From the NCBI GenBank assembly GCA_036172245.1, contig JAYWIR010000030.1:1736001-1800000 (forward strand): DNA of 64,000 nucleotides, in the 5' to 3' direction. The notes under the pieces are model-generated. The model was not told where the DNA came from. It saw only the letters and a program-made list of their open reading frames with translations, and ran no database searches. Source of the DNA: Raillietiella orientalis. Lineage: Eukaryota. This document shows, one piece after another, positions 15,536 through 21,399 of this stretch. The stretch's first letter is position 1; every line of letters starts with the position of its first letter. A program made the position numbers and the translations under genes.

Positions 15536-15641
15536 CAGTTTTAATGCAAGCAAAGTCTTGTCCCCATGGGGAAGGTGTTCTTCAAGAGCCAAAACGATGC
15601 AGTTTGCAATGATAGTCATAAGGACGGCATATTCAAAGGGA
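15536..15641 (-). CDS. cac: Cav2 exon, repeat I S1
   Basis: Reads (P)[35 protein letters not shown]. Non-canonical AC acceptor at 15643-15642, GTAAGT donor. Not in the ORF track. Confidence 0.97.
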
Positions 15642-18217
15642 GTAAAGCAAATTAAGGATAGACATTTTGTCCAATCACATACAAATTAAGAATTCATGTA
15701 CACAGAGTTCTCTGAGCAGGGAAATCAGCCGATATTAAAAGCGTACACAATACATCAGCTGATTAAATTGTCAGCTTAAAATTCCTATTCTGCAATTCAG
15801 TGCTTCTCTTCCGTACTAATTGTTTTTTTGGCAGAAAAGAGGTTGAAAAAAAGGAAAAAAAAAAATGTGACAGCTGGTTGTTGCATCAGTTGCATGACCT
15901 GAAAATTCAGGGATTCGTTTGTTGCAGCAACAAAATAAATGAAGAGAAGCACGTTGTTTTGATGTACCAAAAGTGTATGTCAGAAATTTTTCATAATGAA
16001 GCGATCTTTCGATTTGTTTAAAAATCACCCAGAGAGAAAACGGCGTGATTCAAATCACAAAAAACCGAATGCAGGATGGTTCTGCGAATAATCAAAGTGG
16101 CCACTTTCAACGAAGCGTCTGCTAACAAATGAAGCTCCTCCGGTTCTCCTCAAAACCACGTCTACACGATGTGAGAAGATGAACTCAACCACGGAAAGTG
16201 TGAAAGAGGTTCACCGAAAGACAAACATGAATGAACTTTGCTGAGCGCCAAAAGTGAAGATGGTGACTGATGAGGATCGTCTGAGTTAAATGGATGATTA
16301 CGCTCGAGTAAGTGAATTCAGGTGACACTTGAGTGAAAAATCTCATTTCTGTAAACAGTTGCCTGACACTGATTAATGGATTGTTCAAAAAATTCCGGAG
16401 CCAATAGACTCGAGATGGCAATTTAATTAGTTGATGCCCTAGCTGAATGGGAAGCGCCCACAGAAGTACGGAAATCAAAACTAATTGACCGCTTTTATTG
16501 CAAGTATGATGTAGCCATCCATCTAATTAAAATTTCAAGAACTGCCAAGAAATGGTTAAACGAACCAGATCTGGAAAGATATTAAACTTTAAAGAGCAGC
16601 ATCGAATCCGGAGTATTGATTTGAAAGTGCACCTTGGAAACTAATCTTATCTGTTGCCAATCTTTAATATTAGAAATTGGGAGATGTAAGAGGACATTCA
16701 GGGATCAAAAGGTCACTCTTCTGAAAACCAACAAGCTAAACTAAACTCTTGAATGAAGCGCCTAAAGATACAGAATGTAAGCCATATTGTGTGTATTGAA
16801 AAAACAGCTGGAATGGTGATCCCACTGGCAATAAACGAGGCCTTCTTGAATGTTGACAATTTCACGAGGCAATTACCGCCTGAATAAAAGCTGTTAACTT
16901 TCCACCAGTGCGAATCAGTGTTTGATCATGAAAGATGAAACTTTCCATACTGGAAATTAAAATGCCGACTACTTAAGCACTTGCATTATGCTACAAGCAG
17001 AGGGCTGATGCAACCGGAGACAGAAGCATAAACAGAAGGATTACACAGCCGTGGAGGAGACCTCCAGCCCTAAACTGATGCCTAGTTTTCACGAATTTAA
17101 CGCACCGAATTGCAGCAGAGCTTGCGACGTGCATGCACGAGTCAGCAATGCGTCAAGCTCTCAGATGGACCACCCCGTGTACACCGATTCGGGTTGGTCG
17201 AATTTTTATTTATTTATTTATGGAAGTATCTCTATTTTTTATTTTTTTATAAAAGCGCTATTGGTGTGGAACTGGACGGAACGGAACAGCAAGACGGGAG
17301 AGAGCGATTGCTATGCACTTTGAAAGAAAATGAAAGAATGGATGCAGGTTGTGGAAGACCAGTAGGGGTCCGCGTTAATCATGATGCCTCAATCACTGTG
17401 CAGATTCACACCGAATGCTGCAATTTCTGAAGACGCTCAGTCGCACCGAAGGACAGCGCTACAAACGAATGGAAACTGCAAGTTGGCGAGGGCAATCGAG
17501 TCAGCAACTTTTACATGCTTTGGCATCCAGAGACGTGCACGTAAGAAACATGCATGTTTCTTATTTGGACACTGTTGCACACTACGATCAAGTGAGAACA
17601 CAGAAAGGAACCCCCTCCCTCCCTCCCCAAGGAAAAAAAAAAAAAAATCGGAAGCATACTTTTGAAGGCCTGCACAGAAAATGCGTTACGAACTTTGGGT
17701 AGAGGGAACGAATTTCCGGTAATCATGCACATGATGGAACAACGAGGAGTGGTCCACACAACGCCCAGTGAGTCAAAAATCGCCTCTGGAATCGGATCTT
17801 TCCTCCAAAGCGTGCTTCCCTTTTCTCGGAAATGGGGAGCACGAAAACACAGTTTTGAATAAATTTTCTTCCAGAATGAAAAAAAGGAGGGGGGAGGGGG
17901 AAGAAAAAAGGCAGGAAAACTTTGCTACGCTTCGACGTCTCTTGATTGGCTTCACGGTACGAATGCCAAGGAAACCGTACACAGGGACACAGGAGAAGGC
18001 TGGTGTCGGCGGTGCTCGAGCGTACAAGTGACATTTCGGTGGCATCGTAGCGTCAACTTGGATTTCGCGATCGCATTTGCTCTCCAGCTGAGACAGACAC
18101 GCGAACAACAGCATGCACGAATCAATTCAAGCACAAACCGATCTTCGGTTTCATTTTCAAGACATCAGAGAATTGCAGCAATTTCGCAATGAAACAGTCC
18201 CACGAAAAAAAGGATAT
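15642..18217 (-). other. U12-type (minor spliceosome) AT-AC intron
   Basis: 5' end ATATCCTTT at 18217, branch site TCCTTAAT at 15658-15651, 3' end TTTAC. Removing it restores the conserved IIEWPPFEY. Confidence 0.96.
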
Positions 18218-18430
18218 GGCCATTCGATGATGAATCGCGTGTACTTTCGGATGCGATTGCTGTCGCTGAAGATGAACAAGGAACTCGGCATCTTTTCGTT
18301 CTGGGATTCTGTTCTCCGTACACCGAAACCTCCCGTTGTCCTTTGCCGTTGACTTAAATTGCTCAGTCCGAACAGCCCTCCATCCTGAGCGGCTTTCTGG
18401 GCCTCTACTTCGGCCGTGATTGCCGTCAAC
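18218..18430 (-). CDS. cac: Cav2 exon, cytoplasmic N-terminus
   Basis: Reads LTAITAEVEAQKAAQDGG...MPSSLFIFSDSNRIRKYTRFIIEW(P); the SLFI...N.IRKYTRFIIEWP part is cac-like. Acceptor TCTGTCAG at 18432-18431 (phase 2). The 5' boundary is less certain than the 3' boundary. Confidence 0.9.
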
Positions 18431-18572
18431 CTGACAGATATTTGCTTTTAACTTGCGTGCATTGCAACAACGTGAGTGTGCAAATATTACAACATGGGAA
18501 CAATTGTCACGACAACGCCAGAGGGGGATCGCCACAGAACGTAGCTACAACAATCGGGGTCCATGAATTCAC

Positions 18573-18646
18573 TTTTGGGCGACTTTGCGCATGTGTCTTC
18601 GGATATCGACTCCGCAGGCACTGCATGTGTGCGCCCCACAACCCAT
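18573..18646 (-). CDS. cac: Candidate proximal first coding exon of Cav2 (MGCGAHTCSACGVDIRRHMRKVAQ-K)
   Basis: First ATG after an upstream in-frame TAA; 24 codons plus AA, then donor GTGAAT. A 142-nt intron joins it in frame to the phase-2 acceptor at 18431. Confidence 0.6.
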
Positions 18647-21399
18647 GCGCGGATGCTGAGTATCGACTATTATGGGAACAACAGATTTTTTTCCTCCTGC
18701 GGACCCCTTGAATAATTAATAGTATGATGAAACGTCTGAAGGATGAGTTGGGGATAACTGTGTTTATCACAATGTGATGGAAGAGTTCAGAGCAGGACAT
18801 CCAGCTCGGCTATGATTGCAGACGCATGGGATTCACTGAGGAAGAAGAAGACAAGGGCTGCACTGATGCGTGCGTTCGATCGTTACGCTGATGGCGGACG
18901 GCCGTTTGAATTATCCGCTTGCTGTTCTCGAACTGCTCTTCGTGTGCATCCTATCAAGATTTCAGCAACGGCGGCGACGCTATCAGCGACAGCTGCAAAG
19001 CGAAAAGAACATCAAGTTCCCACTCATCACGGTCGTATTTCATGTCACTTAGTTCGAGACAAGCCCGGAAGCTGAGGAAGCAAGAGTTCGGCTGCGGATG
19101 GAAGCGGAAACCACTGGAGTATTTGACGCTGCTAACGTGAACCGTAGAAGCAGCGTCGAATACTTCCAACAGGAGTCACTCTCGACCGCTTCGGGGCGAG
19201 CACAAGCACTTCGAAGGTGCGCGTCTGCTCGCTGACCACCTCACATCTCTCCTGCAATCCATTGCTCTCCCGTCCTTTCCTCCATTTCCTCCCTCAAGTG
19301 CTGGGGACGAAGTGCTCGTGACGCCCCGAAAAACTGCTGCTGCTGCACCCCGGAGAAGACGGAAACCCGGAGGAGGAGGAAGAGGAAGGGAGTCTTACTA
19401 CGGGAGAGGACAGCCAATTGACAGGAGCGCGGAATGCAAGGAACAGCGCCGGAAGAAAAAAAAAAAAAAGAACAACAGAAGATCTTCTCCAAGATGGACT
19501 CTTTAAAGGGGGAGGACGGGGCAAGGAAGCCGACAGCACCTGCCAAGCTGCAACGGTACCGGCAAAACTTTGCCACGGGAGCGCTCGCACAATAGGGATT
19601 AGAGAGTGTTGGGACAGGATCAGCGTGGAGGCTGCAAAGGTGGCGTTTCATGCGGGCGGGCTGACCTCGAGTAGGGAAAGCCCGAAAGCGATATCGGTGA
19701 GGTACCGCGTGAAGAGTCCACTCTTCACGCACATGGAGCTTTCCATTTCGGACGGTAGATGGCACGTCCATGAGCAACGGCGCCCCAGGTCGAATTCTGC
19801 GGAGCATAGAGGAGCGGGACGAAAGAAGAGGGAAGTGTCCAAGGACACCGCCCACAGGGAGGGACACCCCTCAATGAGAAGGCACATTGAGTAGAGCAGA
19901 TGAACACGCAGGAAGTCAGGTGTTTCGTTCGTGTCAAGGTCTCTTGCGTCCGTTTCGGATCTCTCGAGCGTACTCAGCCTCTGACCCGCCAAGAAGCTTC
20001 GCATCACCTGAATCATAGCAATGCCTTCCCGTTAGGAAAGCGGGAGTGAGATGACACTGCCGCTGCAGCGTCAGTGTCAGTCCTTTGATCCCTCCAAAAG
20101 CCTCTCGAGGCGAAGTGCGGCTTCAAGGGCATCCAGGAAAGACGACCGTGAAGTGTGATAGGATGGGAGACGCGAGGACGAGGAGAGCTCCAGAGAGCCA
20201 TAAGGACAGTCGCGGACGGCTCATGAGACTACGTGGCGCCGGTGCGCCGAATCCTCTGTCGGATTTCGGAGCATTCCTTCGCATGGCTATGTACAGGAAT
20301 GTTCTCCCCCCCCTGTTTCTCCCCAGGGGCCGCATTTTGAGGGGGAATGGAGAAAAGAAGAAGAAGAAAACGGAATGCACGTGGGTCGCGAGCACGTGAA
20401 TCCCGGAGTTTCCCGTTCGGGAAGCAACCTGAGGAAACTTCGTGCCGAGAAGTGTGCGCGCACGCTTCTAAGGATGCACATCGTGGAACGGAGATCCTGG
20501 ACTCGGGAACGCGGATCTCTAAGCTCATTCTTTGCAACCCGAATGCAGGGAAAGCTCCAAGGGGACAGAGTGCCTGCAGTTCAGAAGGGGAAGGAATCTC
20601 CCAAGAGAAGACGTTTCTGCTGCTTTCGTGCTCTGCGCAGGCGTTCCGGTGGAGGCCGCCGAATCCCAAACAGAACCATCAACACGCACTCGGTTGCTTC
20701 TAGTGGATTGGTTGATGAACAGTGGCTGCAGTGCGTCTACTGCGACACTGCCTTGTTTTGTGATTCCTTCTCCTCCTCCTCTTGCGTTCGGTTTTTGGTC
20801 AGCATTCCATTCAGGTTGTCCTCACTAACGGAGACCTATCTGGATGACTCAATTCAGGGAATCATTAGCATCGGTCGTGAAGAAGATAGTGTGTAGCAAA
20901 AGTATGCCAGAGTGAGGAGCGTGTTTCTTTAGGGATCCGCAAACTACTCTCTCGACTCGCCCTGTAGTCTCGATACTTGGGCCTCGTTCTTCGGCAGGAG
21001 CCTTGCGCAGCTGTTCCACTCACGAGAACATCCTCTTCAAAGAGAACGCTTAGCTCGAAGCCGCATCGAGGTCTTCTTTGACGCCAACTTCTTTTCCTTT
21101 CCCCCTTTCTTCCCGGAGAGAACTCTGCTCCCGTCTGAAGTTGCGGCCTCTTACTGACTCGATCGAAGGATCCTGGCTGCAGCTTCTGGGCAGGGAGCGA
21201 AATCGTGTGCTTCCTCCCTGTCGGTCCCAGGTGGCAGCTCCGTCCAGACCCTTCCCATTGCTCTCTGGGACGCAAGGAAGTTCTTCCTGGGATGCAAGAG
21301 GAAGGTGTTTCGATGCTTTGACGAATCGTCGGTGCTTCAGATGATCCTTCACGTCTGCTTCCTTACGGAGGATGTCCATTCCCCTTCGCAGGGACCGGG

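Follow-up and report, generated by a model that had tools for sequence, protein, structure and literature searches.

The 5' third of a Cav2 (cacophony / type-A alpha-1) gene lies on the minus strand of the window, by which we mean the whole stretch of 64,000 nucleotides analysed here. A 74-nt frame beginning Met-Gly-Cys (MGC) may supply the start codon of the long Cav2 N-terminus in at least one transcript form, a reading to which we give a probability of about 0.4. As a proximal leader exon, the frame would either have its own promoter and come first in the transcript, or be internal, 94 nt long and preceded by a possible acceptor ending at 18667. The 24-residue peptide, specific to this lineage, would do no more than supply the initiator Met, like the short, unrelated leaders of other arthropods. 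The rival explanation, in which the frame is a chance ORF, is nearly tied with this one. For annotation, the case matters because the conserved exon at 18430-18218 needs an upstream start and its acceptor keeps the same phase across arthropods; of the candidate starts for that exon, the MGC frame lies nearest.

Invertebrates have a single Cav2 gene, so presynaptic channel diversity comes from isoforms, according to the excerpted text of PMC11828482. The leader, if real, would be one more lineage-specific Cav2 leader.

A conserved second exon without an early start codon

The initial annotation had assigned the gene to Cav2, and our searches agreed: the closest proteins are Cav2/cacophony-type alpha-1 subunits. 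A search with the pore-loop exon returned 935 proteins at E <= 1e-5, and almost all of the 120 that were listed are named type-A alpha-1 or cacophony. Eleven exon pieces, running from 18288 to 66, showed about 66-76% identity to the Cav2 proteins of Daphnia, insects, a collembolan and a tick; since these are equally distant, no close relative was available for comparison. The first of the exons considered in detail, and the first ATG within it, are as follows (here and below, a slash marks a splice boundary).

18218..18430, minus strand: conserved Cav2 exon (exon 2), 213 nt, reading G + LTAITAEVEAQKAAQDGGLFGLSNLSQRQRTT...EKMPSSLFIFSDSNRIRKYTRFIIEW + CC and ending ...FIIEW
18289..18291, minus strand: first ATG in exon 2 (EK-M-PSSLFIF, codon 47), a possible alternative start inside the exon, use of which would leave out the conserved N-terminal part

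The acceptor of exon 2 in the window reads cag/G TTG; it is in phase 2, with a single base separating it from a Leu codon. Fifteen related loci were taken from metagenome collections (the contig of P0006, the closest exon-2 relative, is not among them), and ag/N TTR was found at the same position and in the same phase in 9 of 9 related genomic loci from these collections. In L009, a cDNA-like contig, the splice join falls on the same base as the window acceptor. The sequences after the acceptor have a common exon-start motif, L-x-A-x-x-x-E/A. Exon 2 begins with LTALSEAEA in P0006, with LSALSAES...GGLFGG in the partial Ixodes protein P0079 (which starts exactly at the acceptor), with LQALSAEV in L008, L009 and L013, and with LAAAQEAA in insects. 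An initial pairing of K-LTAIT of the window with RR-LTSLY of L008 and P0010 was dropped; it is LQALSAEV that shares the exon boundary. By these alignments, exon 18430-18218 and its phase-2 acceptor are genuine and deeply conserved.

The first 46 codons of exon 2 contain no ATG. Translation of this conserved 5' part would therefore require a start codon from an exon further upstream, and that exon would have to end in phase 2. P0006 has Ala at the position where exon 2 of the window has its internal Met.

The same part of the exon holds a short basic motif.

18337..18351, minus strand: QRQRT, in ungapped alignment to QRART of human Cav2.2 (R52/R54, 'RAR') and Cav2.1

When the 70 residues of exon 2 were searched against PDB sequences, only three chains were returned, Cav2.3, Cav2.1 and Cav2.2. 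The likeness to the vertebrate Cav2.1/Cav2.2 N-terminus lies in the ungapped QRQRT/QRART pairing, whereas the overall match is weak (E 0.05-0.1). QRQRT and QRART are equally far from the (I/T)EW end of the alignment. However, P0006, the closest arthropod relative, does not have the motif; for this reason the match is not strong, and the alignment is suggestive rather than strong in pointing to QRQRT as a counterpart of the RAR motif. In vertebrate Cav2.1 and Cav2.2, the start codon lies in the same exon as the RAR motif. The R52/R54 arginines of the Cav2.2 N-terminus are needed for G-protein modulation (PMC4940211, in the part available). Because the Cav2 N-terminus carries determinants of G-protein modulation in vertebrates, a new leader could alter regulation or trafficking.

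The candidate leader frame

Upstream of exon 2, the following features bear on the candidate leader.

18573..18646, minus strand: coding part of the candidate leader exon, 24 codons MGCGAHTCSACGVDIRRHMRKVAQ + AA, with K across the junction
18718-18716, minus strand: upstream in-frame TAA, 23 codons before the ATG
18431..18572, minus strand: candidate GT-AG intron, 142 nt, with a weak donor AAA/GTGAAT and a 3' end ...tctgtcag/
18667..18668, minus strand: possible acceptor AG (ttgttgttcccataatag/TCG), 20 nt upstream of the ATG, which we infer from the sequence only

The ATG of the leader is at 18646-18644 on the minus strand, and the run from this ATG to a phase-2 GT is 74 nt long, in frame and has no stop inside. 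The initial annotation had described this MGC stretch, the in-frame stop that precedes it and the donor AA/GTGAAT, all of which are correct on the minus strand. Its in-frame splice over 142 nt to 18430 was likewise confirmed: the join 18573/18430 is stop-free over 95 codons and reads ...VAQ-K-LTAITAEVEAQKAAQ. If the AG at 18667 is used, the leader is an internal exon and not a first exon. The region of the leader exon is single-copy within the window, and the context of its ATG, with C at -3 and G at +4, is moderate only.

A second ATG, at 18800 on the minus strand, begins an open stretch of 97 codons that runs across the MGC start in a different reading frame, and we found no ATG on that strand between 18800 and 18646. 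If transcription started above 18800, the longer frame would act as an interfering upstream ORF. Use of the MGC start would thus require transcription to begin below 18800, or the exon to begin at the site ending 18667.

GC content has a local peak of 56.8% in the leader exon, a mild point in favour of a real exon, compared with 42.2% upstream of it, 45.8% in the 142-nt intron and 52.4% in the conserved exon; third-position GC in the leader gave no frame-specific signal.

Leaders at the same junction in other arthropods

Among the 120 Cav2 proteins listed, 85 reach the FIIEW motif, of which 34 begin at an internal Met and 51 carry an extension. The canonical distal exon (...RRRRAVTTSDHKSCALIQTRLKLGDI-M, with a GD[IV]-M end) is present in 37 of these 51 extended proteins, from insects and a barnacle. 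The leaders of the remaining 14 are mutually unrelated (MELSDMG, MEMPT, MAV, MS, MGR and longer ones), and those ending in R may reflect read-through of the cag/G acceptor. In Periplaneta, at least 11 isoforms (Gnomon) begin MELSDMG/LAAAQ. For Drosophila, the excerpted text of PMC6435823 reports that 14 of 15 isoforms start at the Met of the common exon, and that cac-RN starts earlier and is longer by 107 residues.

The contig L009 (positions 1-741) comes from a metagenome, and its U12 and later introns have been removed. Joined upstream of its acceptor is an exon that lacks an ATG and contains an in-frame stop. In this transcript the LQALSAEV region would thus belong to the 5' UTR, with translation starting at an internal Met. 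From the isoform annotations, Drosophila and L009, it follows that alternative 5' exons at this position, coding or not, are known in arthropod Cav2.

In termite-like loci, the upstream sequence covered, which extends to at most 10 kb, does not contain the distal exon, and this puts its distance above 10 kb. About 180-190 nt before the LAAAQ acceptor, all five such loci (L001, L003, L004, L006 and L007) carry an ATG together with donors, a layout similar to that of the window. This proximal exon candidate may correspond to the MELSDMG leader exon of the cockroach; a search of the five loci for MELSDMG with up to 2 substitutions found no match. The arrangement there is ATG GCC AGT (CGT) CG/GTGGGT overlapping a strong GG/GTGAGT donor, and only the weaker of these two donors suits the reading frame of the first ATG. 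Two Cryptotermes isoforms occur among the 15 listed of 31 cluster members, and both have a long N-terminus.

Like cac-RN and the Periplaneta MELSDMG leader, the window candidate would be an exon with an upstream ATG that joins the same acceptor in phase 2. Those arthropod leaders are short and unrelated between lineages, whereas the candidate is longer (24 residues), Cys-rich and starts MGC. With the canonical distal exon it has in common the acceptor, the phase and the resulting N-terminal extension, but the MGC peptide has no significant similarity to that exon, of which no counterpart was detected in the 45 kb upstream. None of the 120 Cav2 proteins listed starts with MGC, and the collections searched yielded no close relative of this species. 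The leader architecture itself is not new: annotations of arthropod Cav2 include many alternative N-terminal leaders at the junction. The initial annotation had suggested an isoform with a lipid-anchored N-terminus that it did not know to be described for Cav2. This holds insofar as the limited literature searched yielded no lipid-anchored extreme N-terminus of a Cav2 alpha-1 subunit; it does not hold for the use of alternative leaders at the junction, nor for N-terminal S-palmitoylation of alpha-1 subunits, which is reported for Cav1.2 and, by proteomics, for Cav2.1.

Leader exon or chance reading frame

The explanation that competes most closely with a leader exon is that the MGC frame is a fortuitous ORF in intron or promoter DNA, with the true start in a distal exon that lies beyond the window or is too diverged to be detected. 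We regard this as a serious rival, although we would not give it even odds.

The donor of the leader is one reason to take it seriously. Scored with a hand-entered matrix of consensus frequencies, on which a consensus site would reach about 8.7 bits, the donor has only 1.26 bits. It has neither G at -1 nor G at +5 (AAA/GTGAAT), and it is weak beside the other donors of the gene, nearly all of which are GTAAG or GTGAG. Frames of this kind are also not rare. We counted 792 ATG-ORFs that end at a phase-2 GT over the 45.5 kb upstream of the acceptor, and 30 of these have a donor score at least equal to that of the leader, a density of 0.66 per kb. At this density, the probability of a chance neighbour in the nearest 150-250 nt is about 10-15%; the MGC configuration is therefore better than chance, but weakly so. 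In the nearest 1 kb, two candidates exceed 1 bit, namely the leader and one at 19244. Against a fortuitous origin, no stronger in-phase candidate with Cav2-like content was present among the 29 upstream candidates listed (the leader itself is just below the cut-off of that list). Moreover, the 142-nt interval is typical both of the short introns of the gene, which measure about 60-170 nt as estimated from HSP ends, and of the Blattodean proximal exon.

The composition and the peptide of the frame fit a chance ORF, in that the former carries no frame signal and no homologous peptide was found for the latter. The 24-aa leader peptide matched no Pfam family. When the 48-aa read-through product (P0001) was compared with proteins of 85-2000 aa, none shared three 5-mers with it. 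Because the databases searched seem to lack even the Cav2 of this species, the failure to find a related peptide is weak evidence.

The other arthropods also lend weight to a true start further away. The distal exon is the commonest partner of the acceptor, and its distance of more than 10 kb in termite-like loci means that the exon of the window's gene could lie beyond 64 kb. Termite-like loci have a comparable proximal ATG, yet it is the long N-terminus that the two listed Cryptotermes isoforms have. What stands against this is the result of searching the 45 kb upstream, where no exon of the distal type was detected. A tblastn search of this region with 17 N-termini for an insect-type distal exon gave noise only, and a profile of six N-terminal stretches run against 2,669 six-frame ORFs had a best E of 0.4 (1.3-1.7 on the correct strand). 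The region from 18.7 to 64 kb has many long GC-rich ORFs, and 0 of 150 ORFs of at least 110 aa on both strands matched Pfam at E <= 0.01; no neighbouring gene limits the 5' region.

One ORF in this region, P0137 (36020-36265, minus strand), contains ADIRRH, which resembles VDIRRH of the leader with 14 of 15 nt identical. Its FNRRRYCSL recalls FNRHRRLTSL of other arthropod Cav2 N-termini, and it has 'FNR.RR..SL' in common with P0009. We rejected P0137 as a Cav2 N-terminal exon: its similarities are at chance level, with E 0.13 in BLASTP against P0009, nothing aligned to P0010, E 17 for a profile built from the L008/L009/L013/P0010 extension and E 3.6 for the 14/15-nt DNA match.

Possible translation from an internal start

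The leader might instead be transcribed and spliced, with translation beginning at the exon-2 Met (18291) or at Met19 of the leader, so that the MGC peptide would be absent or minor. We consider this unlikely. Internal starts are common at this junction, both in the listed Cav2 proteins (34 of 85) and in the Drosophila isoforms (14 of 15). The upstream exon of the L009 transcript, which has no in-frame ATG, and the moderate context of the leader ATG also agree with such a start. However, if the mRNA includes the exon and transcription starts below 18800, the ATG at 18646 would be the first AUG and in frame, and scanning ribosomes should then use it. In addition, the exon-2 Met lies downstream of QRQRT and is replaced by Ala in P0006.

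Possible acylation of the leader N-terminus

The initial annotation had read MGC as a dual-acylation signal. The leader resembles Src-family kinases and G-alpha-i/o in its N-terminal Met-Gly-Cys, and differs from them in having His6 and no K/R at position 7. The NMT pattern given in the available part of PMC9018777 is M1-G-[not DEFRWY]-X-[not DEKR]-[ACGST]-[KR]7. Leader residues G2, C3 and A5 agree with positions 2-5 of this pattern, but residue 6 is His, which is outside [ACGST], and on this residue the dual-acylation reading failed. Residue 7 is Thr; the same source describes K/R at this position as preferred, and NMT substrates without it exist (PMC9018777). It also reports, for the MGC heptapeptide of G-alpha-o, that replacing Ser6 by A, C, G or T keeps membrane binding and that R, N, F or V leaves the protein largely cytosolic; His was not among the residues tested in that part of the source. 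With His6 outside the NMT pattern, a myristoyl-palmitoyl switch of the Src/G-alpha type is unlikely for this peptide.

S-palmitoylation without myristate is conceivable because the channel is already membrane-embedded, and we infer that one or more of the leader cysteines (Cys3, Cys8, Cys11) could possibly be modified in this way. According to the excerpted text of PMC9963536, Cav1.2 alpha-1C is palmitoylated at the N-terminal C136, which shifts voltage dependence, and brain proteomics places an N-terminal palmitoylation site in Cav1.2, Cav1.3 and Cav2.1. The likeness of Cav1.2 C136, Cav1.3 and Cav2.1 to the leader is that of a cytoplasmic N-terminal Cys in the pore-forming subunit; their cysteines, however, are in a membrane-proximal helix just before IS1, whereas those of the leader are at the extreme N-terminus. 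In the part of PMC9662827 available, palmitoylated beta2a or Lyn11-beta slows Cav2.2 inactivation and lowers PIP2 sensitivity, depending on linker length. For Cav-beta2a (palmitoylated at Cys3/Cys4) and Lyn11 (MGC)-beta, the anchor is on the auxiliary subunit; the putative anchor of the leader would be on alpha-1, in cis.

A Cav2 isoform with an S-acylated extreme N-terminus, perhaps myristoylated despite His6, and with its RxR region pinned to the inner leaflet, seems to us distinctly improbable. A limited set of literature yielded no lipid-anchored extreme N-terminus of a Cav2 alpha-1 subunit. If such an isoform existed, it would have an anchor acting in cis as that of beta2a does in trans, with the RxR motif about 50 residues away, and inactivation, PIP2 sensitivity or G-protein modulation might be affected. 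The idea is of interest only if the exon and its acylation are both shown.

The fully lipid-anchored form of the leader, in which Gly2 is myristoylated, Cys3 (possibly also Cys8 and Cys11) is palmitoylated and the N-terminus is tethered, has an equally low standing. The residues at positions 3-5 after M-G-C are permitted and a basic cluster, RRHMRK, is nearby. Alpha-1 N-termini can be S-palmitoylated, as in Cav1.2 and Cav2.1 (PMC9963536, in part), and anchors placed near Cav2.2 through the beta subunit change its inactivation and PIP2 sensitivity (PMC9662827, in part). Against it are His6 and Thr7, the former at a position where the pattern demands [ACGST], and the G-alpha-o data, in which several Ser6 substitutions gave largely cytosolic protein and loss of Gly2 (G2L) abolished Cys3 palmitoylation (PMC9018777, in part). 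This form also depends on the leader exon being real.

Last, a real leader might bind a metal ion through C3-x2-H6-x-C8-x2-C11, which offers four potential ligands within nine residues, but with no Pfam match and no conservation of the pattern in the proteins searched we consider this extremely improbable. The C3-x2-H6-x-C8-x2-C11 spacing matches no zinc motif known to us.

A U12-type intron downstream of exon 2

Exon 2 is followed by a minor intron and the next Cav2 exon.

15642..18217, minus strand: U12-type AT-AC intron, 2,576 nt, with donor CC/ATATCCTTT and 3' end ...TTTAC/
15536..15641, minus strand: next Cav2 exon, starting (P), then 35 residues; donor CTG/GTAAGT

The U12 intron splits a Pro codon after FIIEW, and its branch site, TCCTTAAT, is at 15651-15658, 9 nt before the terminal AC. 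In 13 of 13 related arthropod loci that are unspliced, the donor has exactly this sequence, TGGCC/ATATCCTT, and it is this conserved, unspliced sequence that makes genomic ORFs there read 'EWPYP'. Minor introns occur in voltage-gated Ca2+ channel genes (PMC8767276, in the part available).

GC content changes sharply along the window. Over 1-14 kb, where the gene body with its AT-rich introns lies, it is 28-34%, and over 18-34 kb it reaches 52-65%. The third-position GC of the exons falls along the same gradient, from 61% in exon 2 to 46% in exon 3 and 18-41% in the exons after it.
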